Below, one piece after another: positions 12,022-64,000 of a DNA stretch of 64,000 nt. The notes beneath the pieces are model-generated. The model saw only the letters and a list, made by a program, of their open reading frames with translations. It was not told the origin of the DNA and made no database searches. Made by a program: the position numbers and the translations under genes. The DNA comes from Microthrixaceae bacterium (GTDB taxonomy: Bacteria; Actinomycetota; Acidimicrobiia; Acidimicrobiales; Microtrichaceae): positions 186,328-250,327 of the forward strand of contig JBAOHV010000004.1 of the NCBI GenBank assembly GCA_037045265.1, read 5' to 3'. Every line of letters starts with the position of its first letter. Positions within the stretch are counted from its first letter, which is position 1.

Positions 12022-12043
12022 AAGCGACGAGGGCCGCGCTCCC

Positions 12044-28228: not shown

Positions 28229-28270
28229 GTGCAGATCGGACTCGCCGCGACTGGCTAACGACCGGTCGTG

Positions 28271-43227: not shown

Positions 43228-43231
43228 CGAC

Positions 43232-43924: not shown

Positions 43925-44064
43925 CTTCGGGGCGGGTCGGGTGTGGAGAATCGAGGGGAGTCGGGAGAGGTCAGATCAGGCTACAGAGCGCCCCGTTACG
44001 TTGCGGACGAGGAGGTCCGCACACGGCTTGGGTGCCGCGGCGCCGGCCGCGCGAGGCTCTCGCC

Positions 44065-45507: not shown

Positions 45508-45517
45508 TCCCGCCCTC

Positions 45518-46093
45518 CTAGTCGCAGTCGGGCTCGTAGACGGCCAGGTAGCGCAGGTTCCGGAACCGCTCCGAGGCATCCAACCCGTAGCCGACGACGA
45601 AGTCGCCCGGGATGGTGAATCCGACGTAGCGCACGCCGAGCCCATCGAGGTCGGCCGATTCGCGTGCCAGGAGCGTGCACACCTCGAGACTCGCCGGGCC
45701 CCGGGCCTCGAGGCTCCGACGCAGGTACCGCAGCGTCAGTCCGGTGTCGACGATGTCCTCGACGAGGATCACGTCGCGATCGTTCAGATCGACGTCGAGG
45801 TCCTTGACGAGTCGCACCACGCCGGAGGTCCGCGTCGAGGAGCCGTAGGACGACACGGCGATGAAGTCGATCTCGACCGGCAGGTCGATGGCGAATGCCA
45901 GATCGGTCAGGAATGCGTAGGCACCGCGGAGGACGCACACGAGCAGCGGGCGCTTGCCGGCGTAGTCGGTGGTGATCTCGTCGCCGATCTCACGGATCCG
46001 TGCCGTGAGCTGCTCCTCGGTCAGCAGCACCCGAGAGAGCTCGAGCTCAGATGCCAGGTTTGGTTGGTCCGATCCCGCGCGGTCGTCACTCAT
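45518..46093 (-). CDS. hpt: hypoxanthine phosphoribosyltransferase
   Basis: ...LLVCVLRGAYAFLTDL...DFIAVSSYG...DVILVEDIVDTGLTL... Confidence 0.95.
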   Translation of the reverse strand: MSDDRAGSDQPNLASELELSRVLLTEEQLTARIREIGDEITTDYAGKRPLLVCVLRGAYAFLTDLAFAIDLPVEIDFIAVSSYGSSTRTSGVVRLVKDLDVDLNDRDVILVEDIVDTGLTLRYLRRSLEARGPASLEVCTLLARESADLDGLGVRYVGFTIPGDFVVGYGLDASERFRNLRYLAVYEPDCD

Positions 46094-47048: not shown

Positions 47049-47100
47049 CTGCTGCTGGACGAGGTGGCCGCGTGGATGCGCCGGCGGCTCACCGGTGCGT

Positions 47101-48159
47101 TCATGCCACCTCGCTCATGCGTCGCAGCCATACAGCCGGGTCGCGGATCTCGTGCAGCGTCGGCAGGTTCGCCGGACGCTCGAACGCGCGGTTCAACAAC
47201 GAGGGCCCACCGGCGGCCTCGACCTGTGCGATGAACTTCTCGCCCTGTTCGTACTGGGCGAGCTTGGCTTCGAGCCCGATGACGCGTTGCAACAGACGAG
47301 TCGCCAGGTTCATCTCCTTGCGCCTCGACCGAAGGACCCGAGCGAAGCGGTCGGCGCTCGGAACCTGGTCGACTGCTGCCCGGTCCATGGTGACGTCCCC
47401 GTGCCCCTCGAGCAGACTCATCAGCCCTCCGACGCGGTCCATGGCGTCGCGCTGTTCGGGACTGGCGAACAGCGCCACGACGCCGCCGTCCTCGAGAGGG
47501 TTCGTCCAGGTACGGGCAGCATCTGCCAGTCGACCAACCGCGGTGAAGATCCTCGTCGGGTCGGGCTCAGCCGCGCCCATGAGCTCCTCGACCAGCCCCA
47601 GGAAGTAGGGGCGGAGCCACGGAACACCTGTGAACTGCGTGCGGTGGGTCACCTCGTGAAGTGCCACCCAGAGTCTGAACTCCCGGGGAGGAAAGCCGTG
47701 ACGTTTCTCGAGCGAGAGGATGTTCGGCCCAACGTAGTAGACGAGATCCTGCTCCTCGGGGTCCTCATCCTCCAGCACCAGCAGGTCGTACTGGCCGAGG
47801 ACCCTTGTGGACATCCAGCCCAGCAGCCCCCCCAGCTCCACCGCGGCGATTCGCCCCGACAACATGCTGGCCGGCCCACCGGATAGCTCCTCCAGCCTGC
47901 CCAGCACGGGGCGTAGCAGCCGCTGGTAGGACGCCAGGTTCGCACGGACCCAGGCGTTGCGATCCACGACCCTGGCCCGCGCGTCGCCCGCCGCGGAGGT
48001 GATGCCGGTCTCTGCCTCCACGTAGTGCTGTGCCCGGCTGGTCAGCTCTGCGAAGTCCCGGGTCATCCCCGCAGCGTGATACGACGAAGCGAACGGATCG
48101 CTCCCCGACAGCCGCGCTGCGACCTGTTCGGCCAACGCCCAGTCGACCGTGTCCCCCAT
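47101..48159 (-). CDS. zinc-dependent metalloprotease (DUF2342-like, HExxH)
   Basis: 352 aa, LWVALHEVTHRTQFTGVPWLRPYF. Actinobacterial family usually found near tilS-hpt. Confidence 0.75.
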   Translation of the reverse strand: MGDTVDWALAEQVAARLSGSDPFASSYHAAGMTRDFAELTSRAQHYVEAETGITSAAGDARARVVDRNAWVRANLASYQRLLRPVLGRLEELSGGPASMLSGRIAAVELGGLLGWMSTRVLGQYDLLVLEDEDPEEQDLVYYVGPNILSLEKRHGFPPREFRLWVALHEVTHRTQFTGVPWLRPYFLGLVEELMGAAEPDPTRIFTAVGRLADAARTWTNPLEDGGVVALFASPEQRDAMDRVGGLMSLLEGHGDVTMDRAAVDQVPSADRFARVLRSRRKEMNLATRLLQRVIGLEAKLAQYEQGEKFIAQVEAAGGPSLLNRAFERPANLPTLHEIRDPAVWLRRMSEVA

Positions 48160-48923: not shown

Positions 48924-49706
48924 TCAGGCTTCGGTCAAGCCGCGGCGACGAGCGACGAGCAACAACACGGTGCCGGCCAACAGCGACGCCGCGCCCAGGA
49001 GCAGGCCGGTCGTCGAGTTGGACCCGGTCAGCGCGAGCTTCGCCGGCGCGTCGGCTGCCACCACGTCGGCGTTGTCGACCGGGACTGTCGTCTCGGCGGC
49101 GACCTGTACGGGCGCGGTCGAGCTGGGCACCGGGAGCGTCGTCGAGGCGAGGACCTCAGGGACCGTGCTCGACGTCGGAGCAGCGGTGGTCGAGGTCGTC
49201 GCCGGGTTGCATCCGGGGTTGCCGAAGTGCTGGTAGGACGTGTCGACGTCGAACGGGAACAGCAGTGGTCCGTGCCAAGGCCCTGTCGGCGCTATCTGCT
49301 GTGGAGTCTCTCCGCTCAGCACGTCGAACTGGACGGGGTCACATCCCTTCTCGAAGGCGATCTCGGTGACACCGGCGCCGTCGATGGTGAAGGGAACGAC
49401 TTCCACGAGCGTCTGGGGCCACTGCTCGCCGTTGCCCGGCATGGCATAGACGACAGCCTTGGCCTCGATCGGCGTGCACGGTGCCGCCGCTGCACGGACG
49501 ATCAGGGTGAAGGCATCAGCATCGTTGCGCAGCGCGCGGGTCAGCCCCAGCGAACCTGGGCTGCAGGGGAGGTCCGACTCCGCAGGTGTCTGCTCGATCG
49601 TGATCGCACTGAGGGTCTGGGCGCCGGCGACCGTCGCAAGGGTCATGGGGACCGCCACGGCGGCGAGGAGCGCTGCGGCCAAGCGCCGCCTGTGAATTGC
49701 AATCAT
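48924..49706 (-). CDS. secreted cell-wall-anchored protein with LAxTG sorting signal
   Basis: GGGAGGG RBS. Signal peptide MIAIHRRRLAAALLAAVAVPMTLATVAGA. Thr/Pro/Ser-rich stalk. C-terminal LALTG + hydrophobic segment + RRRG (class E sortase type). Confidence 0.75.
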   Translation of the reverse strand: MIAIHRRRLAAALLAAVAVPMTLATVAGAQTLSAITIEQTPAESDLPCSPGSLGLTRALRNDADAFTLIVRAAAAPCTPIEAKAVVYAMPGNGEQWPQTLVEVVPFTIDGAGVTEIAFEKGCDPVQFDVLSGETPQQIAPTGPWHGPLLFPFDVDTSYQHFGNPGCNPATTSTTAAPTSSTVPEVLASTTLPVPSSTAPVQVAAETTVPVDNADVVAADAPAKLALTGSNSTTGLLLGAASLLAGTVLLLVARRRGLTEA

Positions 49707-49911
49707 CGGTGTTCCCTCCCGGAAGCCAGCGTCGCGACGCGCAGCCAGCGTCGAACGGTGCGACATGGTAGTACCCGCTTCGCACAACATTCGAAGCTGT
49801 GACCCCTTTCGGCCACATGGCACATCGGCACGGGGCTGAGGTTGGGAGGCCCTCACGCGGCGATACGCTGGGCTCGGAAGCGGATCCGACCCCCTGATGA
49901 GGTGACACTGC

Positions 49912-51540
49912 ATGGAGCTCCCATTCCTGCTGAGCGCGATGCGCCGCTACATCTGGGTGGTCGTACTGGGTGCCTTGCTGGGAGCGCTCCCCGGGATCGC
50001 GTTGGCGATGACCGCGAGCGAGTACTACGAGTCCCGGGCCGTGTTGCTGATCGCTCCACCCACCGACGCTCGCTCGTTGGCCCCCGTAGCAGCCGATCCA
50101 GATCGGTATCTCGCTGGTGAGCTGAGCGTGCTCGAGTCGTACTCCGACCAGGTCGCCGAGCAGCTCGATGACGTATCAGCCGGGGAAGTGGGAGCGTCGG
50201 TCAGCTTCGAGCAGCAGCCCGACACCGACGTCGTCGTCGTGGTGGCTCGGGCCGACAGCGCCAGGGAGGCGCAGCAGATCGCCCAGACGTACACCGACGT
50301 GTACTTCGAGGGACTCCGAGCCCAGCTGGCGAGTGTCCGCGCTCCCGAACTGGCCGAACTCGAGGCCCAGATGGCGGAGGTCCAGACACAGCTGACAGAC
50401 GTGGACGCACGGATCGAACAGGCTCTCGCCCCCTACAGGGACAGAACAGCCGTCCCCACGGTCGAACAGGTCGCACCCGCACTGGCATCCGAGAAGGAGC
50501 TCCTCGTCACCCGCTACAACGAGCTGAGCACCTCCCACAGCGAACTCGGCGCCGGCCTCCAGGCATCCAGTCGGGTGGTCCGTGACGCGACCCTGCCCAC
50601 CGAGGCGAGTGCTTCCTCGGGCAAGGCACTGGTTCTGATCGGTTCGATCGTCGGAGCGTTCTTGGGGACCGTAATCGCCGTTGCCCTCGCCCGCTTCTCA
50701 CGCAACGTGCTCGACACCGAGCAGGCCGAGGAGATCCTCGGTCAGCCCGTGGTCGGCGCCATGCCAGTTCGCCCCGAGATCGACGACGACCCGGCATCCA
50801 TGCTCGCTGCTCCGGACCAGCGGGCAGCGGGCTTCCTGTCGACGCTCGCCGTCCGTGTCGAGGCAGCAGCAGGAGCTGACGATGCTCTGAGCGTGCTGGT
50901 GGCCAGCACAGGCCCGGGTGCGGGCGCGTCCACGCTTGCCGCCTCGTTGGCACGACAGATCGCAGCATCAGGTCCTCGGGTGCTGCTCGTAGATGCCGAC
51001 CGACGACACCCCGAGATCGGCCTTCTCGCGACCCGGGGCTCACGCCGCCGTGACGGGCGCAACTTCGCCACACTCGCCCCCAACCTCCAGGTCTGCTCCC
51101 TGGGAGACCTGCTGCCGGGTACCAGTGAGCGCGACACGACCAGGATGTTCGATGCCACCGCCGTCATCTCCAAGGCGACCGCCGAGGCAGACGTCGTCAT
51201 CTTCGACGGTGGAGCGCTGATGGATTCAGCCTCGACCGTGCAGCTCAGCCGAGCCTGCAGCCTGACCGTGCTTGCGCTGGCAGAACACCTGCCGGTGAAG
51301 CAACTCGTCATCGCCGCCGAGGAGCTGTCCAACAGGCGGGTCCTGCCGGTGTGGATGCCCGAGCCGCCGTCACGTCGGCGTCGCTCGAGCAAGCCCCGAC
51401 CACCTGCACCCGTGGCCGTCAGGGAGACGCATTCATCGCCTCCCCCCGCCGCATGGTCGCCGCATGGCCGCGGCGACAGCGCGGGAGCCGCGCCCGAGGC
51501 CTCAGCTTCGCCCACCCAGGCCGGCTCGAAACGGTCCTGA
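49912..51540 (+). CDS. polysaccharide chain-length determinant (Wzz-like) fused to a degenerate BY-kinase-like P-loop domain
   Basis: N-terminal TM plus a coiled periplasmic-type region plus a second TM. C-terminal VLVASTGPGAGASTLA (Walker A without Lys), VLLVDADRRHPEIG (Walker A'), ADVVIFDGG (Walker B-like). No C-terminal Tyr cluster. Confidence 0.7.
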   Translation: MELPFLLSAMRRYIWVVVLGALLGALPGIALAMTASEYYESRAVLLIAPPTDARSLAPVAADPDRYLAGELSVLESYSDQVAEQLDDVSAGEVGASVSFEQQPDTDVVVVVARADSAREAQQIAQTYTDVYFEGLRAQLASVRAPELAELEAQMAEVQTQLTDVDARIEQALAPYRDRTAVPTVEQVAPALASEKELLVTRYNELSTSHSELGAGLQASSRVVRDATLPTEASASSGKALVLIGSIVGAFLGTVIAVALARFSRNVLDTEQAEEILGQPVVGAMPVRPEIDDDPASMLAAPDQRAAGFLSTLAVRVEAAAGADDALSVLVASTGPGAGASTLAASLARQIAASGPRVLLVDADRRHPEIGLLATRGSRRRDGRNFATLAPNLQVCSLGDLLPGTSERDTTRMFDATAVISKATAEADVVIFDGGALMDSASTVQLSRACSLTVLALAEHLPVKQLVIAAEELSNRRVLPVWMPEPPSRRRRSSKPRPPAPVAVRETHSSPPPAAWSPHGRGDSAGAAPEASASPTQAGSKRS

Positions 51541-51602: not shown

Positions 51603-54600
51603 TCAGCTGGCTGTTGCCATCCCTGAACGCGTCGCATCGTTCGACTGCACCGAGCTTTCGGCATCGGTGATAGCACTGCGGATGTGACCGGCGAGCACAC
51701 GCACCGCCGGCTCGAGGACCATCGAGTCGTGGTCCCCGGGGACCTCGGTCACCTGGACCCGCCGACAGTAGGGACCCCAACCGTTGTCGAAGTAGACGAA
51801 GCGACGGTTGATGTCGATCTGGCGGTCAGGTCCGAACACATGAGCAGGCGTGAGACGCGGCCGGTACAAGGTCACGGTGCCCTCGTAGGGACGGACGTCG
51901 TATCGCTCCAGGGCACGGTAGAACGCCGCCTCGATCACCTCCGAGTGCAACGTCGTGTCAGGTCCGACAGCAGGCCCGGCTGCGCGGCGTCGACGCTCCT
52001 TCTCCCATGCGATGCGGTTCCGGGCCCACGACCTGACATACGAGGCACCCTCCTCGCGGATGTTGTCCAGCTGGATCTTGACCCTGTCCGAAACCCTCAG
52101 CGGTGGCTGGTCCGGCAGCGGGGTGTCGAGCAGGACCAGCAGTGACGTCTCCTCACCAGCCGCACGGAGTTGCTGTGCCATCTCGAAGGCGGCGATTCCA
52201 CCACCGGAGAACCCGCCCAGCAGGTATGGCCCGTGGGGCTGCACGCTACGAAGCTCCTCCAGGTACTCCTGGGCCATCTCAACGAAGTCCTCGTGCGGCG
52301 GATCGTCGCCGAACAGACCGCGTGCCTGGATGCCGTAGAAGGGCCTGTCGGCACCGATCTGGTGTGCCAGGTGGCGCAGGTTCAACACGTTGCCGAACAT
52401 GCCCGCAACCAGGAAGAACGGGGTCCGGTCGGATCCGTCACCAGGGTGCAGCGCCACGAGGTACCGGTACCGGGGCTTTGCCGCGACAATGGACGACTCG
52501 CTCGTGAGATCTCCGTCATCGCTCGGGAGGGCTTCCGAGATCAGCTCGGCGCACGCCTCGACCGTCGGGGCTTCGACGAGGACCGAGATCGGGAAGTCGA
52601 CCGAGAAGGTCCGCTTGATCTGGGCGAAGAGGCGCACCGCTATCAGGCTGTGCCCTCCCAGGTCGAAGAAGTTGTCGCGGACACCGACCTGGTCGATGCC
52701 GAGGAGCTCCTGCCACATCACGACGAGCTGCTCCTCCACGTCGTTGCGAGCTGCGACGAACTCGGAGTCGAGCTTCGGTCGACTGAACACCGCGCTCGCT
52801 TCGCCGCCGGCGCTCGAGCCGATCTGCTCAGCCGCGATGAGGTCGCCCTGGTGTGACAGCGCCGGGAGGTCGAGCGAGGTCACGTAGACCACCGGGTCCA
52901 CATCGGGGCCGATGGTCCGGAGGAACTCCCGTCCCCCCTCGATCGGGCGGATGCCCTGGCGGAGGTTGCTCTCGAGAGCCAGCTCGGGAAGGGTCCGTTG
53001 CCGGGCGCCGGCCGATCCGTCGAAGTCGACCTCGGCCGCGAGCGCAGGACGCCCTCCGACCTCGAGACGTCCTTCCAGCCGCTTGACGGCGAACCCTTCG
53101 ACCTCGACGAGCACGCGCCCGTCACGGTCGCAGAGCAATACGTCGAACGACGCGACGCCGCTCTTCTCGGACGTTCCCGACAGCACCTCGGCGACCGCCG
53201 TCAGCTCGGACGGCAACCGATCGTGGATGCGGACCCGGCGATACTCGACCGGCACCCACAGCCGGTCACCCGTGTAGCCGGGGATGAGGTCCATGGCGAA
53301 CCCGGTGCCCAGGTCGACGAGCGCCGGATGCAGCCCCATCGACAGGTCCTCTGTGTCGTACGGGGCCTTCAACTTCAGCTCTGCCACAGCGGTTCTGTCG
53401 CCGTAGCGGACCTCGGTCACCACGTCCCAGCGAGGACCGAACCTGAGGTGGTCCTGCTGGCGGGTCCGCGTGGCGCCACGACGATCGCATCCGGCGAGGA
53501 CCCTGGCCAGCTCGACCGAGTCCGCCGGATCCAGTGGGTGCAGCAGCAGGTCCGCCTCGCCGGTGAGGCGCCAACCGACCCTGACCGAGGTCACCTCGCC
53601 CTCGCCGCCGTAGCTGGTGACCGATACGCGCTCACGGATCTCGAAGCTGTAGCCGGACTCCGTGGGCCGGAGGACCACTTCGGCGCTCACGTTCCCGTCG
53701 GCATCTACCGCCAGGGGACGCAGGAAGGTCAGATCGCGCATCTCGAACGGGCGCTCCAGTCCGAGCTCGGCGAGCGACGCTCGGGCCAGCTCCAGGTATG
53801 TCGCTCCCGCGACCACCGCGTCACCGTCGCCTGTGCGGTGCTCGTCGAGCGGCCAGGAATCGCGCTCGTTCCAGTCGATCGAGAGCCTGACCACCCCGTC
53901 TTGCGCCCTGCGCAACTCACCGAAGAAGGGATGAACCGCTTGACGCAGCTCGACGTCCTCGATGTCGCCTGACGAGTCAACCGCAGCGGCAGCTGCCGCC
54001 ATGCCGACCTCGTCCCAGACCCCCCAGTTGACGGCGCGGACGTGGCGATCGCCACGGGCACGGCGTGACTCGGCGAACGCGTTGAGGAAGGAGTTCGCAG
54101 CGACGTAGTCGACCTGTCCGATCGGAGCCGTGACGGTGCTGGTCGAGGAGAACACGACGAACAGATCGAGGTGATCGGATGCGGTCGCGGTCTCCAGTAC
54201 GAGGGTCCCGTACACCTTGGGGGCGAGGACGTCCTCCATCTGCATGGGCGACTTGGTGACCAGCAGGGCGTCGTCGATCACCCCCGCCGCGTGCACCACT
54301 CCGTTCAGGGTTCCGAACTCGCTGCGGACCCTGGCGACCGCGGAGTTGAGAGACTCCGGATCTGTCACGTCACCCTCGACCACGATGACCTCGGCGCCCT
54401 CCTCCTCGAGGCTGCGCACCCCGCGGATCCGCACTGCCGTCGGGTGATCGTTACCGAGACGACCGAGAACCTCGTCCCAGGTATCCCTCGGCGGCAGGCC
54501 ACGCCGTGCCAGCAGGGCCACGCGGGCGCCACGCTCGCGGTACAACGCTTCGGCCACGCTCAGACCGATGCCGCCCAGGCCTCCGGTGATCAGCACGACG

Positions 54601-57600
54601 CCGTGTCGGCGCAACACCGCACGATCGGGCTCCGGCAGACGGGTCCTGCGCACGTCGCGCACGTAGCGTCTGTCGCCACGGAGCGCCACCACCGAATCCT
54701 CGAGAGGTGCTCGCACTTCGGCGACCACCTCGTCGATCAGGGAGAACTCGGTGATCGCCGCCTCGGATGTCGCCGAGCGAATACGCCCCATGATCGACCC
54801 GGCCTGTCGCCGACCAACACCGACGGCATCAGCCACCTGCGCCGGGTCGAGGTCGAAGGTCGAGACGCTGACGTCGGCGAACTCCCGGGGGATCACCTGC
54901 ACGGGCCCGAGGACCGTCGCCTGCTCGGGGAACGGCACGGCGTCGGAACCGGGAACCGATTGGGAGCCCATGGTCGCCACCGAGATGGCGAGGCTCCGCT
55001 GCACGCCGGCCGAGGCCCAGGCCTGCGCCAGATAGACGAGGCTCTGGAAGCCGAGCTCCTGGTTCCGATGGAAGAAGCTGCTTCCGGGCCGGAAGTCGCG
55101 GTCGTCGGTGGCCAGCAACGAGAGGTGCGCCACCCGGTCGGGCAGCCGGTCCGTTCGCACCAGGTCCTTCACCAGGCTCTCGTAACCCGCCAGTCCGAGC
55201 TCGGGACTCAACACGTACTCGTCGTCAGACACCGCTCTGAAGAGGTCGCCCATCCGAACCACGACGACGGAGTCGCCGGTTGCACGAAGCTCGGCGACGA
55301 CCTCGTCGGCGAAGCCGGCTGCATCGGCGAGGACCAACCAACGGTTGGGGCCGTCGACGGCATCCTCACGGTCCTTGCTCTTCCAGACCGGCTTCCAGGA
55401 CCACCGATCCACGTCGCTCTCGCGGCTGACGAACGCCAGATCGTCGGATTCGGTGACCCCGGCACCTGGAGCGATGAAGAACGTCTGGGTCTGGAACGGG
55501 TACGTCGGAAGGCCCACGGTCCGGCGTCCATCGGCGGGGAACCATCGGTCGGCCTCGATGGTCGAGCCCGCCGCCCAGATCCGACCCACCGCTGTCAGAA
55601 GGGCCGCGTTGTCGTCTGTCTCCTCCTCGGGGTGACGCATCGCCGGCACGGCAACCTGGTTCGACCTGACCGCCGTGGGGTGGGCCCTCACCAGCGACGA
55701 CAGGGTCTTTCCGGGACCGACCTCGAGAAGAACCCGCGGGCCGGCGGCGGCGAGAGTCGCCACGTCGTCGGCGAAGCGGACAGTCGAGCGCAGGTGCCGG
55801 ACCCAGTACTCGGGATCCGTCGCCTGCTCCGTCGTGATCCAGGTGCCGGTGGTGTTCGACACCCAGGGGATCGTCGGCGGATGCAACTCGATACCGCGCA
55901 GGTAGTCGCCGAACTGCTCCAGGACCGGGTCCAGCAGGCGGCTGTGGACAGGAGTCGTGACCTGCACCGGCAACGGCTCGATGCCGCTCTCGCGGATCTC
56001 CTGTTCGAACAGGTCCAGGCTCGCCTGCGGACCGGAGACGACCACCACGTCGGGCGCGTTGACCACCGCCAGGTCCAGCGCCAGACGTTCGACCGCCTCG
56101 GCCACGTCGTCTGGTGTGAGCGGCACCGCCACCGCTGCTCCTTCGACGGTGTCCATCAGACGGCCACGGAGAACGACCAGACCTAGGCAGTCCTCGAAGG
56201 AGATGGTGCCTGCCACACAGGCCGCCGTGTTCTCGCCCAGGCTGTGCCCGACGAGCGCCGAAGGTTCGAGTCCCCAGCTCATCAGCAGGTGCGCGAGCGC
56301 ATGCTCGATGATGAAGATCAGCGGCAGCTGATGCGTCATGGACGCGAGTCGGGTGTCGAGCTCCGGGCTCCTGTCCTCACCCAGCAGGAGATCGGCGAGG
56401 TCCAGCTGGTGCCTGTCCCTGAGGAGGCCCAGACCGCGGTCGACCTGAGCTGCGAACGCCGGTTCGCAGCGGTGGAGATCGGCCCCCATGCCCAGATGCT
56501 GGGATCCGCCACCGGGGAACATGAACGTGAGTCCGAGTTCAGCGGTGGTGGCGGTGTGGGTCGGGAGACGACGTACGTCCGCGGAGCGCAGCAGCACGAT
56601 CGCGTCGGCGACGTCGCGCACGGCGAGGACTCTGCGCTCGTCGAAGTGGTGTCGTCCCACGAACAGCGTGCGTGCGACGTCCTCGATCGGCAGGTCGAGG
56701 TTGTCCGCCAGGTGATCGGCCAGTCGGACGCCGGCTTCGTCGAGTGCTCCCCGGCTACGCGCCGACAGTGTCAGCAGGTGCCACCGCTCAGATTCCGCTG
56801 TCCCTGGTTCGCCCGAGGGGTCGCGACGTTCTGGCTCTGCGGGGGCCTCCTCGAGGACTGCGAAGGCGTTGGTGCCACCGACACCGAGCGAGTTGACCCC
56901 GGCCCGGCGCGGTCCGTTGGAGCCGCTGGTCCATGGCGTGAGGTGGTCGTTCACCACGAAGGGGGTGTCGTCCAGCTCGAGGTTCGGGTTGGGTCGCTCG
57001 AAGTTCAGGCTCGCGGGCAGCGCACCGTGATGCAGCGACAACGCGACCTTGATCAGACCGGCGGCACCGGCGGCAGTGTCGAGGTGCCCGATGTTGGTCT
57101 TCACACTGCCGATCCGACACGAGCCGGTCACGGTGGGTCCCAGGTCGAACGCTTGGGCGAGCGCTGCGACCTCGATGGGGTCCCCCATCGGGGTGCCGGT
57201 GCCGTGGCACTCGACGTACTGGATCGAGTCCGCGTCCACATCGGACACGGCGATCGCCTCGGAGACGCATGCCGCCTGGCCGTCGACCGACGGCGCCAGG
57301 TACCCGACCTTCTGGTCGCCGTCGTTGTTGACAGCGGTTCCTTTGATCACCGCGTAGATGCGGTCACCGTCATCGAGGGCGTCGTCGAGTCTCCGGAGTG
57401 CGACCACTCCGGCGCCCGAACCGAAGACCGTTCCCTGGGAACGGTGGTCGAACGCTCGGCAGTGCCCATCCGGCGAGAGCACCTCGCCCTCGTGGTACAC
57501 GTAGCCCTGCCCGTGGGGGATCTCGATCGTCGATCCCCCGGCGAGGGCGAGGTCGCACTCACCGCTGAGCAGGTGCTGCACCGCCAGGTGGGTGGCGACC

Positions 57601-58142
57601 AGCGAGGTCGAGCACGCCGTCTGCACGTTCACGGACGGCCCACGGAGGTTCAACGAGTAGCTGGCCCTGGTTGCGAGGAAGTCCTTGTCGTTGCCCGTGT
57701 GGCGCAGGAGGAACACACCGACGTCGCGGACGAGGTCAGGGTTCGAGAGCAGGTTCCTCATGAAGTAGGACCCCATGCCGCAGCCGGCGAACACTCCGAT
57801 CGCTCCGTCGAACGACGACGGAACGTGGCCGGCGTCCTCCATGGCCTCCCAGGCGGCCATGAGGAAGTGCCGGTGCTGGGGATCCATGATCCCCGCTTCC
57901 TTGGGCGACAGCCCGAAGAAGTCGGCGTCGAAGTCGAACACGCCATCGAGTGGAGCTGCTGAACGGACGTAGTTCGGCGAGCGGAGCTCTGCCTCGCCGA
58001 CGCCTGCTTCCACGAGCTCCTGCTCGCTGAGCTCGCGGATGCTCTCGACGCCGTCGACCAGGTTGCGCCAGTAGGCAGTCGGGTTCGCTGCACCTGGTAG
58101 GTGCGCTGCGAGTCCGACGATCGCTATGTCGTTGTCAGCCAT
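51603..58142 (-). CDS. type I polyketide synthase, KS-AT-KR-DH-ACP-TE (PfaA/HglE-like KS)
   Basis: Intact 2179 aa. KS: DKDFLATRASY, VQTACSTSLVA, ECHGTGT, NIGHL. AT: GHSLGE. KR: VVLITGGLGGIG, HAAGVIDDA, VDYVAANSF. DH: HPFFGEL...LDEHRTGDGDAVVAGATYLE. Carrier: FFDLGGHSLIAVRL. TE: LLGGFSGGG. Confidence 0.9.
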   Translation of the reverse strand: MADNDIAIVGLAAHLPGAANPTAYWRNLVDGVESIRELSEQELVEAGVGEAELRSPNYVRSAAPLDGVFDFDADFFGLSPKEAGIMDPQHRHFLMAAWEAMEDAGHVPSSFDGAIGVFAGCGMGSYFMRNLLSNPDLVRDVGVFLLRHTGNDKDFLATRASYSLNLRGPSVNVQTACSTSLVATHLAVQHLLSGECDLALAGGSTIEIPHGQGYVYHEGEVLSPDGHCRAFDHRSQGTVFGSGAGVVALRRLDDALDDGDRIYAVIKGTAVNNDGDQKVGYLAPSVDGQAACVSEAIAVSDVDADSIQYVECHGTGTPMGDPIEVAALAQAFDLGPTVTGSCRIGSVKTNIGHLDTAAGAAGLIKVALSLHHGALPASLNFERPNPNLELDDTPFVVNDHLTPWTSGSNGPRRAGVNSLGVGGTNAFAVLEEAPAEPERRDPSGEPGTAESERWHLLTLSARSRGALDEAGVRLADHLADNLDLPIEDVARTLFVGRHHFDERRVLAVRDVADAIVLLRSADVRRLPTHTATTAELGLTFMFPGGGSQHLGMGADLHRCEPAFAAQVDRGLGLLRDRHQLDLADLLLGEDRSPELDTRLASMTHQLPLIFIIEHALAHLLMSWGLEPSALVGHSLGENTAACVAGTISFEDCLGLVVLRGRLMDTVEGAAVAVPLTPDDVAEAVERLALDLAVVNAPDVVVVSGPQASLDLFEQEIRESGIEPLPVQVTTPVHSRLLDPVLEQFGDYLRGIELHPPTIPWVSNTTGTWITTEQATDPEYWVRHLRSTVRFADDVATLAAAGPRVLLEVGPGKTLSSLVRAHPTAVRSNQVAVPAMRHPEEETDDNAALLTAVGRIWAAGSTIEADRWFPADGRRTVGLPTYPFQTQTFFIAPGAGVTESDDLAFVSRESDVDRWSWKPVWKSKDREDAVDGPNRWLVLADAAGFADEVVAELRATGDSVVVVRMGDLFRAVSDDEYVLSPELGLAGYESLVKDLVRTDRLPDRVAHLSLLATDDRDFRPGSSFFHRNQELGFQSLVYLAQAWASAGVQRSLAISVATMGSQSVPGSDAVPFPEQATVLGPVQVIPREFADVSVSTFDLDPAQVADAVGVGRRQAGSIMGRIRSATSEAAITEFSLIDEVVAEVRAPLEDSVVALRGDRRYVRDVRRTRLPEPDRAVLRRHGVVLITGGLGGIGLSVAEALYRERGARVALLARRGLPPRDTWDEVLGRLGNDHPTAVRIRGVRSLEEEGAEVIVVEGDVTDPESLNSAVARVRSEFGTLNGVVHAAGVIDDALLVTKSPMQMEDVLAPKVYGTLVLETATASDHLDLFVVFSSTSTVTAPIGQVDYVAANSFLNAFAESRRARGDRHVRAVNWGVWDEVGMAAAAAAVDSSGDIEDVELRQAVHPFFGELRRAQDGVVRLSIDWNERDSWPLDEHRTGDGDAVVAGATYLELARASLAELGLERPFEMRDLTFLRPLAVDADGNVSAEVVLRPTESGYSFEIRERVSVTSYGGEGEVTSVRVGWRLTGEADLLLHPLDPADSVELARVLAGCDRRGATRTRQQDHLRFGPRWDVVTEVRYGDRTAVAELKLKAPYDTEDLSMGLHPALVDLGTGFAMDLIPGYTGDRLWVPVEYRRVRIHDRLPSELTAVAEVLSGTSEKSGVASFDVLLCDRDGRVLVEVEGFAVKRLEGRLEVGGRPALAAEVDFDGSAGARQRTLPELALESNLRQGIRPIEGGREFLRTIGPDVDPVVYVTSLDLPALSHQGDLIAAEQIGSSAGGEASAVFSRPKLDSEFVAARNDVEEQLVVMWQELLGIDQVGVRDNFFDLGGHSLIAVRLFAQIKRTFSVDFPISVLVEAPTVEACAELISEALPSDDGDLTSESSIVAAKPRYRYLVALHPGDGSDRTPFFLVAGMFGNVLNLRHLAHQIGADRPFYGIQARGLFGDDPPHEDFVEMAQEYLEELRSVQPHGPYLLGGFSGGGIAAFEMAQQLRAAGEETSLLVLLDTPLPDQPPLRVSDRVKIQLDNIREEGASYVRSWARNRIAWEKERRRRAAGPAVGPDTTLHSEVIEAAFYRALERYDVRPYEGTVTLYRPRLTPAHVFGPDRQIDINRRFVYFDNGWGPYCRRVQVTEVPGDHDSMVLEPAVRVLAGHIRSAITDAESSVQSNDATRSGMATAS

Positions 58143-58181: not shown

Positions 58182-61100
58182 TCAGCTGCTGCGCACGCGC
58201 CGTCGCTGCAGGTTCTCGCGCCTGCGAGCAGCGCGGTCGGCGCTCGCCTGACGCAGCGATGCACCGCCGTCGCCCGACAGCGAGTCCGAGAACGAGCGCA
58301 CAGTCGGGTGCCGGTAGAGCTCGGTCAACGCGATGGGCCGCTCGAGCAGCTCCTTCAGCCGACGGTGCATGCGCACGATCAACAGTGAATGACCGCCGAT
58401 GTCGAAGAAGTTGTCGTCGATGCCGATTCCGCTGCGTCCGAGGGTCTCCTCCCAGACCGACAGCACCAGCCGCTCGGTCTCGTTCGACGCTTCGGCCGCC
58501 GGCGAGGCGCTGTCACGCCGCGCCAAGTCGCCGAGCGACGGCAGGGCGTTGCGGTCGATCTTGCCGTTCGGGGTGTGGGGCAGGTCCGCGAGCAGCACAA
58601 GGTGACCGGGGACCATGACGTCGGGCAGCACACTGCGCAGACGGTCCTTGAGCTCGGCGGCATCGAGGGTGGCTCCCGCCGAAGCGGACGCGTAGGCGAC
58701 GAGCTGCTGATCGCCCGGCGAGTCCTCGCGGACCGCTGCAACGCATTCGCGCACACCTGGGCAGCGCCCGAGCTGCGCCTCGATCTCGCCCAGCTCGATC
58801 CGGTAGCCACGGATCTTGACCTGGTGATCGATTCGGCCCAGGAACTCCAGGAGCCCACTTCCGTCGGCCTGTTCTCGCCAACGGGCCAGGTCACCTGTCA
58901 GGTACATGCGATGGTCACCGCCGCGGAACGGGTCGGCGACGAAGCGCTCGGCTGTGAGCTCCGGCCGTTCGTGGTAGCCGCGCACCACGCCGAGACCGCC
59001 GATCCACAGCTCGCCAGCGACACCCGGCGGAACGGGCTGGTGGTTGCGGTCCAGTATGTAGATCCGGGTGTTGGCTATCGGTGTCCCGATCGGGATGATG
59101 TTCAGATCGCCGTGCAGGGGCCACGTGGTCGACCAGATGGTCGTCTCGGTCGGACCGTACATGTTCGTGACCTTGCCGCTGAGTGAGCGGGTGCGCAGCT
59201 CGTCCGCCAGTGCGACCGGGAAGGCTTCGCCGCCGACGAACAGGTGCTCCACCGAGGCGAGCGCGTCGCGCGACTCTTCCTGCATGCTGAGCATGCGTGC
59301 CATCGACGGGGTGCACTGCATGTGGGTGACCCCGTGGCGTGTCAGCTGGGAGGCGACCGACTGGTCGAGTGCCGCCGGCTGCGCCTCGGGATCGGCCTGT
59401 GCCCCTGCCCCTGCGTTGGACTCACGTCGGATGCGGTCGAGCAACGGGAGCGAATCGAGCACCTCGTCGGTGTCGATGCCGAAGTCGATGAGACAAGCGA
59501 TCTCATCGACACCGATGCCCTTGAGCTTGTCGACGGTCTCGCGGCAGCGCTCAGGCGTTCCGAAGAGCCCTGACGTCTCGTAGTAGCGCAGGAAGGCGAA
59601 CTCGAGCACCGCGTCCATCTCGTCGTCACCCAGGTCGTGGAAGACGTCGTCGTTCAGGTCGTCTGCAGTCCGGGGAGCGGCGCCACCGGGGCGCTGGAAG
59701 GCCGGGAAGCTCCACGCGTAGTCGCGCAGCAGCGAGGCGGAGGTGCCCAGGTAGTCCTTGAGCGGACCGCGGACCTTCTCGCGAACGACATCTTCGTCCT
59801 CGCCGACGAACGTGTGAAGCATCAGGCTGACGATGCCGGCGTCGGGGTCGAACCCGGCTTCGGCACGAGCCTGACGGTAGGCCTCGATCTTCGGCGCGAG
59901 CTGCTCGATCGACTGCCCGAGCAGGTGGGTCAGCACGTTCGCACCCACCCTTCCGGCCTGGACGTAGGTGTCCGGGTTGCCGGCGGTGGTCACCCATGCC
60001 GGCACTTCCTCCTGCACCGGTCGGGGCAAGGTGCGAACCGGAACCTCGGCACCGTCGACGCCGATGAAGGTCACCGTCTCCCCCCGCCACAGACGACGCA
60101 GCTGATCGAGGCCCTCGAACATCTTGGCCTTGGCGTCCTTGTAGTTCTGCGGACGCAGCACGAAGTCGTTGGGCTGCCACCCCGACGCCACCGAGATGCC
60201 GACACGGCCGTCGGACAGGTTGTCCACGACGCTCCACGCCTCGGCCACGCGGATCGGGTGCTCCAGCGGCATGACCACGGACCCGGAGCGGATCTTGACG
60301 CGCTCGGTGATCGTCGCGATCGCCGCGCTGGTCACTGCCGGCTGCGGGTAGAGCCCACCGAAGTCGTGGAAGTGCCGCTCGGGGGTCCAAACTGCGGTGA
60401 AGTCGTGCCGGTCGGCGAATCGGGCCCCGTCGAGCAGGAGGCGATAGCGGTCCGAACCTGCACCGGTGCTCGCGTCACCGGAGAAGTAGAACAGCGAGAA
60501 GTCCATCGGCAGCTGTGGGTGCTGCTCGACGAAGATGCCCTGGTCCTCGTCGTCCTCGTCGTCATGGCGGTCACGGTCGAGGTAGACGACGACGCTGAAG
60601 CCGCGTGCCAGGGTGTAGAGGAGCTCCAGAACCGAGATGTCGAACGACAACGAGGTGACCGCGAACCAGGTCGCCGGCAGCTCGTGGGCAACCCGCTCGT
60701 CCATTCCCTCGAAGAAGTTGACGACGTTGCCGTGCTCGATGAGCACGCCTTTGGGGAGACCCGTGCTGCCCGAGGTGTAGATGCAGTAGGCCAGGTTCGA
60801 CGGCGACACGTCGACCATCGGCCTGGTCGTCGGCCGCGAAGCGATCAGCTCACGATCCTCATCGAGCGACACCACGGTGATGTGCTCGCTCACGTCGAGC
60901 GGGAGCGTGTCACGCTGGGCCGACTGCGTTAGAACGACCTCACACCCGCTGTCGTTGATCATGTGCTCGAGCCGGTTGGCTGGGTAGACGGGGTCGAGCG
61001 GCACGTAGGCACCACCGGCCTTGTGGACACCGAGCACCGCCACGACGAGGTCGATGCCACGGGTGACGTGGACTCCGACGAGGTCGTCCGGGCCGACTCC

Positions 61101-62936
61101 CAGGTCGATCAGGCTGTGGGCCAGGCGGTTCGCCCGCTCGTCGAGCTCGCGGTAGGTGATCGACCGGTCCTCGAACACGACCGCCGTCACGTCGGGAGAC
61201 GTGTCGGCGGTGGCCTCGATCAGCTGGTGGACGGTCGTCGCGGGTACCGGTCGGTCCGTGGCGTTCCAGTCCTCCAGGATGCGATGCCGGAGCTCGGTTC
61301 CCAGCAGGTCGACGTGACCCACCGGGCGAGTCGGGTCGCTCGCCAGCTCCTCGAGCACCGCCTTCAGACAGGACACGAGCAGCGCCCCGTCGGCGGCGTC
61401 GACGAGACCGGTGTCGAGCACCACCGACCAACCCGTGGCGCCCTCGACGAGCTCCGCCACGACCTCGTCGGCGGTGTCGCCCTCACCGAAGCGAACAGCA
61501 ACCGGCAGAAGCCGCCCGGCGGCGAGGTCGGGGTTGCGTGTCAGGTCCGGGTGACGGGCGATCAGCTCCTGGGCGAACGGCAACCGCCCGCGTGCGGCTG
61601 CGAGTCGATCGGCCACCCCTGACACGGCGCCGGCCAGCGACTCGGTGGGGTCGATGCTGATCTCGACGGGTGCGGAGCGTGCGAACAGACCGGCCGTGGC
61701 GCCGAGCGCACCGGCCCACGCGGCGTCGCTCACTGCGAGGTGGAACCTGTCCTTGCCCACGAGCCTGGACAGCAGCGTCGCCCATGCGCCGACCACGGCG
61801 TCGACCGCGAGTCCGTCCGGTACGTCCAGCGCCGTACGTTCGTGGCGGGCGACATGGTCGGCGGTCGGGGTCCTGGCCCAGGGCAGCTCCACGGGCTCGA
61901 GCGAGTGGAGCTGGCGCTCGTACAGGGACTCCGCTCGAGCCGCCTGCGCTGCCAGAGAAACCAGCGCCTCGCCCGTCCTCGGGTCGAGGCTCGACAGCAC
62001 GCGACCCGGCCGCAGGTCGTGGGCCTCGATCGCCTGGGTCAGGTCGAGAGCCCCACCCCTGGCGGTGGCGACCGCGGTTATGGCCAGCGCGCCCTCGCCG
62101 CATGCGACGACGACTGCATCGGGGTCGCTCGAGATGATCGTGCCGGACACACCTGCCACGTCACGCACCTCGGCAGAGACGACCGTCACCGTCCCGTCGC
62201 TGCTCGACAGGTCGCCGACGACGAGCTTGGGTGTGCACACCGTGTTCGGGTACGGACCGAAGCTCAGGGCCCGCACCAGTCGGTCGAGTTCCGCCGCGGG
62301 TCGCGAGAAGTCCAGTATGCCGAAAGCGTCGGGGCGGTCATGACGACTGAAGGTGCGCCGCTGGATCGAGGTGTCCTGGGGCCGCCCGGTGACATCACCG
62401 GAGACCAGCAGGTCGATGAGCTCCTGGAAGGAGTCGATCGCGGCCTCGAAGTTGCGCGTGTTGAGCGACAGCGAGGTCTCCTCGTCGGCCACGTCGAAGC
62501 GACGCTCGACGAGGACGTCGCCCTCATCGATGCCTGCGGTGACGAGGTGCCAGGTGATGCCGTAGGTGGGCGCGCCGTCGATCAGCGCCCACACAGGAGC
62601 GTTCAGGCCTCCGTAGGCGGGCAACAGGCCGTCGTGGAAGTTGACAGAACCCCGTTCGGGTATCGACAGGACGCTGTCGGGCAGCAGCTTCAGGTGAGTG
62701 ATGGCGAGCAGCCAGTCGAAGCTGTGCCGCGACAGCTGCTGCTCCCACTCGGCGGTGGGCCCCGACGCGTCGAACCAGGCCAGGTCCTTGGAACGAGCCC
62801 ATTCGCCGACCTTGGGGGTGCCGGCGGCGACCACGGTGACCTCGTGGCCGGCAGCCAGCAGGGCCTCTCCACACTCGACGAGCAGGCTGTCTGCACCAAC
62901 GAGTGCGCACCGGAGGCGCTGATCTGTAGTGGTCAT
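58182..62936 (-). CDS. NRPS loading module: formyltransferase domain / C-like linker / adenylation domain interrupted by a luciferase-like monooxygenase / PCP
   Basis: Intact 1584 aa. F: SVNFHDGLLPAYGGLNAPVWALIDG...GIDEGDVL. A: LAYCIYTSGSTGLPKGV, FDISVLEL | LLM insert MDFSLFYFSG...FTAVWTPERHF...LIDFG | NMYGPTETTIWST, YLTGDL, KIRGYRIELGEIE, PNGKIDR. PCP: FFDIGGHSLL. Confidence 0.9.
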   Translation of the reverse strand: MTTTDQRLRCALVGADSLLVECGEALLAAGHEVTVVAAGTPKVGEWARSKDLAWFDASGPTAEWEQQLSRHSFDWLLAITHLKLLPDSVLSIPERGSVNFHDGLLPAYGGLNAPVWALIDGAPTYGITWHLVTAGIDEGDVLVERRFDVADEETSLSLNTRNFEAAIDSFQELIDLLVSGDVTGRPQDTSIQRRTFSRHDRPDAFGILDFSRPAAELDRLVRALSFGPYPNTVCTPKLVVGDLSSSDGTVTVVSAEVRDVAGVSGTIISSDPDAVVVACGEGALAITAVATARGGALDLTQAIEAHDLRPGRVLSSLDPRTGEALVSLAAQAARAESLYERQLHSLEPVELPWARTPTADHVARHERTALDVPDGLAVDAVVGAWATLLSRLVGKDRFHLAVSDAAWAGALGATAGLFARSAPVEISIDPTESLAGAVSGVADRLAAARGRLPFAQELIARHPDLTRNPDLAAGRLLPVAVRFGEGDTADEVVAELVEGATGWSVVLDTGLVDAADGALLVSCLKAVLEELASDPTRPVGHVDLLGTELRHRILEDWNATDRPVPATTVHQLIEATADTSPDVTAVVFEDRSITYRELDERANRLAHSLIDLGVGPDDLVGVHVTRGIDLVVAVLGVHKAGGAYVPLDPVYPANRLEHMINDSGCEVVLTQSAQRDTLPLDVSEHITVVSLDEDRELIASRPTTRPMVDVSPSNLAYCIYTSGSTGLPKGVLIEHGNVVNFFEGMDERVAHELPATWFAVTSLSFDISVLELLYTLARGFSVVVYLDRDRHDDEDDEDQGIFVEQHPQLPMDFSLFYFSGDASTGAGSDRYRLLLDGARFADRHDFTAVWTPERHFHDFGGLYPQPAVTSAAIATITERVKIRSGSVVMPLEHPIRVAEAWSVVDNLSDGRVGISVASGWQPNDFVLRPQNYKDAKAKMFEGLDQLRRLWRGETVTFIGVDGAEVPVRTLPRPVQEEVPAWVTTAGNPDTYVQAGRVGANVLTHLLGQSIEQLAPKIEAYRQARAEAGFDPDAGIVSLMLHTFVGEDEDVVREKVRGPLKDYLGTSASLLRDYAWSFPAFQRPGGAAPRTADDLNDDVFHDLGDDEMDAVLEFAFLRYYETSGLFGTPERCRETVDKLKGIGVDEIACLIDFGIDTDEVLDSLPLLDRIRRESNAGAGAQADPEAQPAALDQSVASQLTRHGVTHMQCTPSMARMLSMQEESRDALASVEHLFVGGEAFPVALADELRTRSLSGKVTNMYGPTETTIWSTTWPLHGDLNIIPIGTPIANTRIYILDRNHQPVPPGVAGELWIGGLGVVRGYHERPELTAERFVADPFRGGDHRMYLTGDLARWREQADGSGLLEFLGRIDHQVKIRGYRIELGEIEAQLGRCPGVRECVAAVREDSPGDQQLVAYASASAGATLDAAELKDRLRSVLPDVMVPGHLVLLADLPHTPNGKIDRNALPSLGDLARRDSASPAAEASNETERLVLSVWEETLGRSGIGIDDNFFDIGGHSLLIVRMHRRLKELLERPIALTELYRHPTVRSFSDSLSGDGGASLRQASADRAARRRENLQRRRVRSS

Positions 62937-63136: not shown

Positions 63137-64000
63137 ATGACCTTCGAGGCACTGAAGAAGCTCCGACAGAGCGGGCTCGTAGGCGAGTCCTCGTGGGGGC
63201 TCGGGCTCGAGGTGACCGCCCTTCTCGGCACGATCCTGTCGTTCATGTTCCTCGGGCGATCATTGGGACCCGAGGGCTATGGCGGCTATGCGTCGCTCTA
63301 CGCGATCGTCGGCCCTCTGGTGACACTCGCCGCTTCGGGGGTGACGCTGTCGCTGCTCCAGCACGTGATGCGCGACGGCGAGCCGCTGGAACGAACCGCC
63401 AGGTCGTGCCTGACCTTGGGCCTGGGCCTGGGGATCGCCCTGACCGGGATCGGCTTCGGTTTCGCCTTGTGGATAATCGAGACCCTCTCGATGGCGGCGA
63501 TCCTGTCGATACTCCTGACCGAGTTCGTCACCATGCCGGTGCTCAACCTGGCCGCCGCGACGGTGCAGGCTACGACCGGGTTCGGCGGCGCGGCGAGGAT
63601 CCGCATATTCGTGATGGTCGCCCGGATCGTGGTGCTCGTAGCCCTGTTCGCCACCTCGTCGCTGACCGTCGAGTCGTTCGGTGTATCGATGCTGTCGATC
63701 TCGACGATCTCAGGGATCTTCTTCCTCCACGTCGTCGGAAAGGAGCACGGATTCGCTTTCGTACCGGGTCGGGTTCTGTGGCCCCATGTGAAGTCGAACC
63801 TCTCCTACTCGGGCGGGATCTCCGCCGACTCCCTGGGCAACGACGGCGACAAGCTCGTGCTCGCCGCCAACCAGATGGTGGTCGAGACGGGCCTCTACTC
63901 CGCTGCCTACAGAGTCGTGCAGATGGGGCTGGTCCCGGTCGGGAGCGTCATCCAGGCGACCCATGGCCGCTTCCTCACCCACGAGGAGGGACTGAAGGGC
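63137..64000 (+). CDS. polysaccharide biosynthesis / oligosaccharide flippase (MOP/Wzx-like), 3' end outside window
   Basis: Own translation: MTFEALKKLRQSGLVGESSWGLGLEVTALLGTILSFMFLGRSLGPEGYGGYASLYAIVGPLVTLAASG... Open for 288 codons to the window edge with multiple TM segments. Absent from the ORF track because no stop is reached. Confidence 0.65.
   Translation, partial: MTFEALKKLRQSGLVGESSWGLGLEVTALLGTILSFMFLGRSLGPEGYGGYASLYAIVGPLVTLAASGVTLSLLQHVMRDGEPLERTARSCLTLGLGLGIALTGIGFGFALWIIETLSMAAILSILLTEFVTMPVLNLAAATVQATTGFGGAARIRIFVMVARIVVLVALFATSSLTVESFGVSMLSISTISGIFFLHVVGKEHGFAFVPGRVLWPHVKSNLSYSGGISADSLGNDGDKLVLAANQMVVETGLYSAAYRVVQMGLVPVGSVIQATHGRFLTHEEGLKG

Follow-up and report, generated by a model that had tools for sequence, protein, structure and literature searches.

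The window examined here (a stretch of 64,000 nucleotides from contig JBAOHV010000004.1 of a Microthrixaceae bacterium) contains a nonribosomal peptide synthetase (NRPS) gene directly followed by a type I polyketide synthase (PKS) gene. The best overall explanation is that they form a two-gene NRPS-PKS cassette, with the NRPS as loading module, from a large, conserved and uncharacterised family, whose product may become part of a surface glycan. We assign this interpretation as a whole a probability of about 0.6. The NRPS has an N-terminal formyltransferase (F) domain and a predicted glycine adenylation (A) domain that is interrupted by a luciferase-like monooxygenase. Formylating loading domains are known, and so are glycine A domains in which an alpha-hydroxylase is embedded. 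Judged from the sequence, what is new in relation to characterised systems is the combination of an F-type loading module with an A domain interrupted as in MtaG, and our search of the full-text literature found no description of the two in one starter module.

The NRPS gene is an open reading frame (ORF) at 58182..62936 on the minus strand, with the same coordinates as in the original prediction, which a model had made from the sequence. It starts with ATG and encodes 1584 aa. The original prediction described a loading module consisting of an F domain, a remnant resembling a condensation (C) domain, an A domain and a peptidyl carrier protein (PCP). Searches against Pfam, NCBIfam and the PDB gave the order F, C-lobe remnant, glycine-type A domain interrupted by a monooxygenase, and PCP, with the following parts:

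62022..62936, minus strand: F domain, aa 1-305 (PF00551, PF02911; best PDB match 5UAI; triad Asn99/His101/Asp137)
61293..61964, minus strand: remnant of the C-terminal lobe of a condensation domain, aa ~325-548 (profile A2 against the PDB; collinear with Txo1)
60537..61259, minus strand: N-terminal part of the A domain, aa ~560-800, with the motifs through a4 FDISVLE (Pfam AMP-binding 574-790)
59427..60503, minus strand: luciferase-like FMN-dependent monooxygenase (MOx/LLM), aa 812-1170 (TIGR04020; PF00296, E 1e-46; PDB 6KET)
58542..59381, minus strand: C-terminal part of the A domain, aa ~1186-1465 (TIGR01733 1186-1400; AMP-binding_C 1384-1459; code DILQFGMIWK)
58284..58469, minus strand: PCP, aa 1490-1551, with the phosphopantetheine residue Ser1517 in GGHS (PF00550, E 9e-12; Ser1517 invariant)
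58185..58244, minus strand: basic C-terminal tail DRAARRRENLQRRR (R1568, R1572 and R1579 invariant in alignment A1)

No thioesterase (TE) is found inside the NRPS protein; the TE sits in the PKS. The order of the F domain, the glycine-type A domain and the PCP agrees with the loading module feeding a PKS that had been proposed. Alignment A1, of 19 NRPS homologues from several phyla ranging from Actinomycetota to Proteobacteria, has as invariant positions the F triad, the core motifs of the A domain together with Lys1459, the PCP residue Ser1517 and dozens of monooxygenase residues. The basic tail is possibly a docking element toward the PKS.

Both subdomains of the F domain are kept, with Formyl_trans_N at aa 62-163 (E 6e-17) and Formyl_trans_C at aa 205-302. 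A PDB search with the first 314 aa gave the Met-tRNA formyltransferase 5UAI as top match (E 2.8e-23), covering both subdomains. The catalytic stretches that had been pointed out, VNFHDGLLPAYGG and GIDEGD, are present in the translation. The alignment with 5UAI pairs GSVNFHDGLLPAYGG with GCINSHASLLPRWRG and GIDEGD with GLDTGP, which identifies Asn99, His101 and Asp137 as the canonical formyltransferase triad. Survival of the triad in a proper alignment had been named as a test of the F domain, and the three residues are unchanged in 19 of the 19 homologues in A1.

The F domain is fused in one chain to the A domain and the PCP. In LgrA, from linear gramicidin synthesis, an F domain with a homologous catalytic subdomain is likewise fused to A-PCP and formylates the carrier-bound amino acid, a step needed there for further extension (cited in PMC4504003). 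LgrA differs in using valine instead of glycine, and its F domain matches only the N-terminal subdomain (aa 68-170; 38 bits, E 8e-9), whereas the F domain in the window keeps Formyl_trans_C. Overall, Met-tRNA and sugar formyltransferases (71-86 bits) resemble the domain far more closely than the F domain of LgrA does, and the next PDB matches after 5UAI are GDP-perosamine N-formyltransferase (77 bits) and ArnA (71 bits). As the locus is also a polysaccharide locus, one might imagine that the substrate of the F domain is an amino sugar from the adjacent pathway and not PCP-bound glycine. We find this very unlikely, since the same F and C-remnant region also heads F-A-PCP modules of ~1200 aa whose amino-acid codes are diverse and which lack a sugar context, which is the pattern of an NRPS loading domain, and since the fusion to A-PCP is kept in every full-length homologue listed or examined. 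By analogy, the F domain would transfer the formyl group to PCP-bound glycine.

The stretch between the F and A domains had been described as a C-domain-like remnant, and the searches bear this out. In the PDB, a profile built from aa 325-548 of 16 homologues (A2) matched nothing but NRPS condensation domains, and in each case the match lay in the C-terminal half (TomB, E 2.5e-9; CDA-C1; Txo1/2; others). The single sequence (aa ~315-580) is collinear with the C-terminal lobe and the C-A linker of Txo1/Txo2 (E 7.7e-12), and the Pfam Condensation family matches the same stretch in relatives (profile positions 188-329 and 399-456). Neither the HHxxxDG motif nor the N-lobe was found in the translation or by the profile search. 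With only a C-lobe present, there is no functional upstream C domain, and the sequence suggests that the F domain in effect stands where the N-lobe of an ancestral C domain was.

The adenylation motifs quoted in the original prediction (FDISVLE, HMQCTPS, LFVGGE, NMYGPTE, TTIWST and PNGKID) are all present in the translation. The A domain had, however, been read as contiguous, which it is not: an insertion of ~400 aa, missed in that reading, separates motif a4 (FDISVLE) from motif a5 (HMQCTPS/NMYGPTE). Pfam AMP-binding is found in two pieces, the first of which (aa 574-790) corresponds to profile positions 2-242, and a TIGR04020 domain lies between them at aa 813-1170, so the A domain is interrupted. 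Code positions 239 and 278 are 437 residues apart in this protein versus 39 in uninterrupted relatives. The spacing in GrsA is also 39 residues.

The specificity code obtained by motif anchoring and pairwise mapping is DILQFGMIWK, which reproduces the code that had been read by eye, and eight of its ten positions are invariant in A1. As reference glycine code we take DILQLGLIWK, as did the original prediction. The code was mapped in every relative longer than 1100 aa from the homologue searches. All of the ~155 relatives with the insert carry DILQ[M/F/L/Y/C]G[M/L][I/V]WK, the exact DILQLGLIWK among them. The F-A-PCP relatives without the insert have diverse codes, which by comparison with reference codes are Gly-, Cys-, Ser-, Thr-, Asn- and Val-like. 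Glycine is well supported as the predicted substrate, because the code pattern in the insert-bearing relatives matches the literature on monooxygenases in glycine A domains.

The insert belongs to the TIGR04020 MupA/Atu3671 family of FMN-dependent luciferase-like monooxygenases (aa 812-1170; 499.6 bits against a cutoff of 244 in NCBIfam) and matches Bac_luciferase in Pfam (aa 812-1145). Many of its residues are invariant across phyla in A1. The closest solved structure is PuwE from puwainaphycin synthesis (6KET; E 5.6e-112 over the whole domain), for which hydroxylation alpha to the carrier-bound thioester, placing a 2-hydroxyl on the acyl chain, has been proposed (PMC4219810). PuwE differs in its fatty acyl substrate and in its position, which is between PKS and NRPS modules instead of within a glycine A domain. 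For TIGR04020 domains of PKS/NRPS lines the usual assignment is alpha-hydroxylation (PMC8739492), and monooxygenases of this type are found within glycine-recruiting A domains, where they hydroxylate C-alpha (PMC11342130).

The nearest described counterparts are MtaG and MelG from the myxothiazol and melithiazol pathways, which by published description have a glycine-type A domain with a luciferase-like FMN monooxygenase between a4 and a5 (PMC10204066, PMC11342130). They differ from the NRPS in the window in being terminal C-A(MOx)-PCP-TE modules, to which a long chain is delivered and from which it leaves as an amide. The window protein is a starter module, with a formyltransferase in place of the N-lobe of the C domain, a PKS following and no TE. 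By analogy with MtaG, MelG and SolF, the embedded monooxygenase would hydroxylate C-alpha of the carrier-bound glycine.

In MtaG and MelG the hydroxyglycine carbinolamide is cleaved to an amide and a glyoxylate bound to the carrier (T) domain (PMC11342130, PMC10204066). The shared a4/a5 layout raises the alternative that hydroxylation labilises the N-C-alpha bond here too, that formamide leaves, and that PCP-bound glyoxylyl is the true starter for the PKS. The formyl group would then only mimic the N-acyl group needed by the monooxygenase, and the product would be 4-oxobut-2-enoate (fumaraldehydate) or a longer omega-oxo-polyenoate. Replacement of exactly the N-lobe of the ancestral C domain by the F domain fits a module that recognises N-acyl-glycine and has lost its upstream chain. 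The MtaG and MelG modules are terminal, though, and the alpha-hydroxyglycine is kept in solanimycin B, where chain extension goes on (PMC10204066). This would also be a costly way to a simple 2-oxo acid, and we regard it as unlikely.

The PKS gene lies on the same strand as the NRPS gene, with its start 39 nt past the NRPS stop:

51603..58142, minus strand: type I PKS, 2179 aa, consisting of ketosynthase (KS, 4-431), acyltransferase (AT, 539-836), ketoreductase (KR, 1181-1378), dehydratase (DH, 1404-1691), acyl carrier protein (ACP, 1805-1868) and TE (1910-~2150), from Pfam, NCBIfam and PDB searches

Only one PKS module had been seen, and this single KS-AT-KR-DH-ACP-TE module is indeed the only one in the window and up to ~9 kb past its edge. 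The KS-AT part matches type I PKS structures (best 8XJU, E 6e-213), the KR has a structural prefix, and the placement of KR before DH is non-canonical for a modular PKS. By eye the active-site motifs are intact: KS with TACSTS (Cys), HGTGT and NIGH (His), AT with GHSLGE, KR with IDD and the catalytic Tyr/Asn, DH with His and Asp, and TE with GFSGG ... GDH. We take GHSLGE to indicate a malonyl-type AT and IDD a B-type KR. The carrier protein and TE are closer to NRPS PCP-TE pairs (tyrocidine, surfactin, EntF) than to ACP-TE pairs of PKSs.

Put together, we infer the following pathway. The A domain would load glycine onto the PCP, as its code suggests, and the F domain would N-formylate Gly-S-PCP with N10-formyl-tetrahydrofolate, as in LgrA and CongA. 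The embedded FMN-dependent monooxygenase might then hydroxylate the alpha-carbon of glycine in analogy with MtaG, MelG and SolF. The KS-AT-KR-DH-ACP-TE module would add, reduce and dehydrate one malonyl unit, giving a C4 2-enoyl product. The TE would release or transfer this small C4 unit, 4-formamido-4-hydroxybut-2-enoyl; collapse of the carbinolamide, if any, would yield 4-oxobut-2-enoyl and formamide. This product would more likely be used in a cell-surface glycan, whether as building block, as aglycone or as decoration, than act as a free antibiotic.

The original prediction had placed the module near pathways that turn a formyl-glycine starter into an oxazole ring, as in oxazolomycin, conglobatin and phthoxazolin-type polyketides. 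Its description of CongA and OzmO as F-A(Gly)-PCP modules accompanied by a putative cyclodehydratase was correct (PMC4504003). These proteins, and the rhizopodin system, share with the window the N-terminal F domain, the glycine-type A domain, the PCP and the hand-over to a KS. CongA and OzmO start with precisely this arrangement, an F-A(Gly)-PCP unit ahead of a KS (PMC4504003), and the glycine-type code has been confirmed here. By description they differ in having no monooxygenase, in having CongE/OzmP as PP-loop partner and in feeding multi-modular PKSs that lead to oxazoles. The earlier remark that no cyclodehydratase is visible still stands: no PP-loop cyclodehydratase of the CongE/OzmP type was found in the window or in the ~9 kb beyond it, and none was seen beside the NRPS in the ~80 related loci inspected. 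The only protein of the PP-loop enzyme type in the window, TilS (46086-47048), was considered as a CongE-like cyclodehydratase and rejected, as it has the TilS substrate-binding domain and is located beside hpt in a tilS-hpt-folE-folP housekeeping block. The active-looking KR and DH of the single PKS module, which also carries a TE, would reduce the ketone needed for ring closure. With the cyclodehydratase not found, a monooxygenase in the A domain, a reducing PKS and polysaccharide genes as neighbours, the oxazole route is unsupported and in our opinion highly improbable. The resemblance of the F domain to Met-tRNA and sugar formyltransferases also speaks against kinship with these pathways. 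The practical message for this window is that it does not hold an oxazole-antibiotic cluster.

The cassette is flanked by two polysaccharide-type genes:

49912..51540, plus strand: Wzz / P-loop protein (polysaccharide co-polymerase, BY-kinase-like), convergent with the PKS (weak Pfam Wzz and CbiA matches; own hidden Markov models, HMMs)
63137..64000, plus strand: Wzx-type flippase (Polysacc_synt; PF01943, PF13440), truncated at the edge of the window and divergent from the NRPS

The identical NRPS protein is also encoded on a metagenomic contig (L001) that reaches ~9 kb past the window edge. Past the NRPS gene, this contig encodes the full 431-aa flippase, a WecG-family transferase, a GT2 glycosyltransferase, a DUF1996 protein, a GT4 glycosyltransferase and Wzy_C, which places the WecG, GT2 and GT4 glycosyltransferases 1.5-6 kb upstream of the NRPS. 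Inspection of the sequence past 64 kb had been suggested as a check, and these 9 kb held no cyclodehydratase, phosphopantetheinyl transferase (PPTase) or MbtH protein; for MbtH, none was found on the contig or in the examined part of the window according to the Pfam listings, on which this negative is based. A search of the window for PPTase and polysaccharide genes with our own HMMs found only the Wzz/P-loop gene. As the Pfam-positive Wzx gene at 63137 was missed, the reach of these HMMs is limited in Actinomycetota. In a 68%-identical Acidimicrobiales locus (L002) with otherwise different neighbours, a Wzz/P-loop gene (22141-23829) is likewise found on the convergent side of the PKS, which suggests a conserved partnership of this gene and the cassette in the Acidimicrobiales lineage.

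Proteins with the full NRPS architecture, 44-91% identical from end to end, were found in Acidimicrobiales metagenome-assembled genomes (MAGs), Deltaproteobacteria/Myxococcota, Microvirga, Hydrogenophaga and very many Rhodobacterales. A scan with one genome per species gave at least 596 candidate relatives. The best 80 of these all span essentially the whole protein, and they come from Actinomycetota, Planctomycetota, Myxococcota, Acidobacteriota, Gemmatimonadota, Chloroflexota, Salinivenus, Cyanobacteria and Alpha-, Beta- and Gammaproteobacteria. The relatives fall into three length groups: ~1500-1600 aa with the insert, uninterrupted F-C*-A-PCP proteins of ~1200 aa (C*, the C remnant), and longer multi-domain proteins. 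The F and C-remnant region alone gave 1233 clusters at 50% identity (E<=1e-30), not all of which have the monooxygenase. NCBI names the ~1500-aa NRPSs 'MupA/Atu3671 family FMN-dependent luciferase-like monooxygenase' or 'LLM class flavin-dependent oxidoreductase'. Since such names cover the inserted domain only, the synthetases are easy to overlook, and the cassette is both widespread and mis-annotated.

Three further proteins (P0141, P0169 and P0191) share the F and C-remnant N-terminus. Two of them have an A domain that is seemingly doubly interrupted, by a luciferase-like monooxygenase and a methyltransferase, and the other has the order F-C*-A-PCP-PCP-nitroreductase.

The NRPS and PKS genes are adjacent in most related loci, and the pair is kept at full length across more than ten phyla. 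In the Acidimicrobiales MAG locus mentioned above, the NRPS is followed by the PKS, a PPTase, the Wzz/P-loop gene and an Acyl_transf_3 gene. Microvirga has the NRPS and then the PKS, together with a PPTase, WecG, Bac_transf and two GT2 genes, and Gemmobacter has the order GT2-PKS-GT2-NRPS-PPTase. In Ruegeria conchae the PKS, GT2, NRPS, PPTase and following gene are so closely packed that stop and start codons adjoin or overlap. The RefSeq annotations of Aminobacter, Shinella and Ruegeria conchae agree with the polysaccharide-gene context. In these three (L086-L088) the cassette and polysaccharide genes are located on large plasmids or chromids of 364-787 kb. A conserved hypothetical protein of ~316-440 aa with no Pfam match and, by eye, a hydrophobic N-terminus (L039, 10422-11372) has homologues in ~13 loci (L066, 16589-17911; L010; L028; L081), where it is encoded beside the NRPS/PPTase genes in Alpha- and Betaproteobacteria.

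Genes for Wzx, Wzy, Wzz and a priming sugar transferase, along with several glycosyltransferase genes, are repeatedly found near the cassette in Alpha-, Beta- and Gammaproteobacteria, in Myxococcota and Cyanobacteria, and in Acidimicrobiales. The position of the cassette in Wzx/Wzy-type polysaccharide loci, both here and in many phyla, suggests that its product is part of a surface glycan, although taken by itself this is less likely than not. The NRPS is found without an adjacent PKS, still in polysaccharide-type loci, in Agrobacterium sp. AGB01 (L066, 9998-14638) and Aulosira (L032, 9968-14641). In Aulosira the next genes encode a PglD-like hexapeptide acyltransferase and a DegT-family sugar aminotransferase, an arrangement that would fit transfer of the glycine derivative from the carrier to an amino sugar.

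The frequency of this association was surveyed in 84 loci using our own ORF calls and family HMMs, the latter built mostly from proteobacterial sequences, with Pfam checks of representatives. The gene types counted were GT2, GT4, WecG, Wzx, Wzy, Wzz, P-loop and Bac_transf. Within 10 kb, 62 of the 84 loci had at least one type and 50 at least two, which speaks for the polysaccharide context. Outside the Rhodobacterales, 27 of 49 loci had at least one type and 16 of 49 at least two. The survey counts are rough lower bounds, because greedy longest-ORF calling mis-called high-GC loci (antisense ORFs in L006, L015 and L022).

Several points weigh against the proposed pathway and its glycan link. 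The totals from the survey are rough, raw counts without a background frequency. In Acidobacteriota, Chloroflexota and several Myxococcota loci no polysaccharide genes were detected within 10 kb, as far as crude ORF calls and proteobacterial-biased HMMs reach. No PPTase was found in the window with our own HMMs or on the longer metagenomic contig. The substrate prediction stands on a 10-residue code, and a PKS with KR before DH could act iteratively and make a longer polyene instead of a C4 unit. Formylation followed by hydroxylation of glycine has, to our knowledge, no characterised precedent.

Loci such as that of a deltaproteobacterium (L004), with the NRPS followed by the PKS and no sugar genes nearby, could also be explained by a free diffusible small molecule, for example a signal, a siderophore-like compound or an antibiotic. 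The polysaccharide context would then be incidental, or would reflect only glycosylation of the molecule by the linked GT2. Some other members also have no polysaccharide genes within 10 kb, the TE suggests release, and the Rhodobacterales core has been described as just PKS, glycosyltransferase, NRPS and PPTase (PMC5014874, PMC4337385). This does not account well for the recurrence of Wzx, Wzy, Wzz, priming transferase and glycosyltransferase genes in different groups, nor for the Agrobacterium and Aulosira NRPSs that stay inside polysaccharide loci without a PKS, and we consider a free product rather improbable.

Returning to the surface glycan, the idea can be sharpened, more tentatively, into a single role for the family: the F-A(Gly)-PCP protein with its embedded monooxygenase, usually together with a one-module PKS, might be a dedicated surface-polysaccharide biosynthesis part across >10 bacterial phyla. 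A C4 enoyl unit derived from N-formyl-alpha-hydroxyglycine (or glyoxylyl) would be built into, prime or decorate a Wzx/Wzy-dependent glycan. This sharper form is doubtful, while the link of the cassette to cell-surface polysaccharides in general is suggestive. We know of no characterised precedent for a glycan substituent made by an assembly line, which is what the cassette would represent if the interpretation is true. The formyl-hydroxyglycine chemistry and the recurring position in polysaccharide operons form a concrete hypothesis that is testable in cultured carriers.

Among such carriers are the roseobacters. A conserved hybrid PKS/NRPS cluster was first noted in this group by Martens et al. 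(2007), as cited in PMC5014874 and PMC4337385. It was present in 28 of 57 genomes, and its product 'has not yet been identified' (PMC5014874, PMC4337385). Both genes in the window have full-length homologues in this cluster: the NRPSs are 44-46% identical over 97-100% of their length and the PKS has the same set of KS, AT, KR, DH, carrier and TE. The cluster has linked glycosyltransferase and PPTase genes, whereas in the window no PPTase adjoins the pair, no GT2 is intercalated and the flanking genes are Wzx and Wzz; this copy comes from an Acidimicrobiales-like actinobacterium. The original prediction had allowed that a close characterised homologue cluster might already exist. A homologous cluster is known in roseobacters, but it is not a characterised one, and in the full-text literature searched no product was assigned to the roseobacter cassette. 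The window thus holds an Acidimicrobiales-type member of a gene-cluster family that has already been noticed in roseobacters and never characterised. If the glycan interpretation is correct, it would tell what the 'conserved Roseobacter PKS/NRPS cluster' does.

The locus shows no compositional break, with a G+C content of ~0.68 across the window. Between the Wzz-like gene and the housekeeping block with tilS lies a 329-aa ORF (48924-49913, minus strand) with a weak match to a C-terminal LPXTG anchor (E 0.014) and otherwise no Pfam family. The housekeeping block itself (42241-48159) comprises folP, folE, an ABC1 kinase gene, hpt, tilS and a zincin-like peptidase gene. DisA, a RadA-like ATPase and a ClpC-like AAA+ protein are encoded at 24881-30193, and a polyprenyl synthase is found among the remaining housekeeping genes of the window. 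These blocks fit the Acidimicrobiales affiliation of the closest homologues. At 2621-13396 on the plus strand are genes for a SNF2-family helicase (979 aa), a P-type cation ATPase (1183 aa), an ABC transporter and a GGDEF diguanylate cyclase, which are unrelated to the cassette as far as seen.

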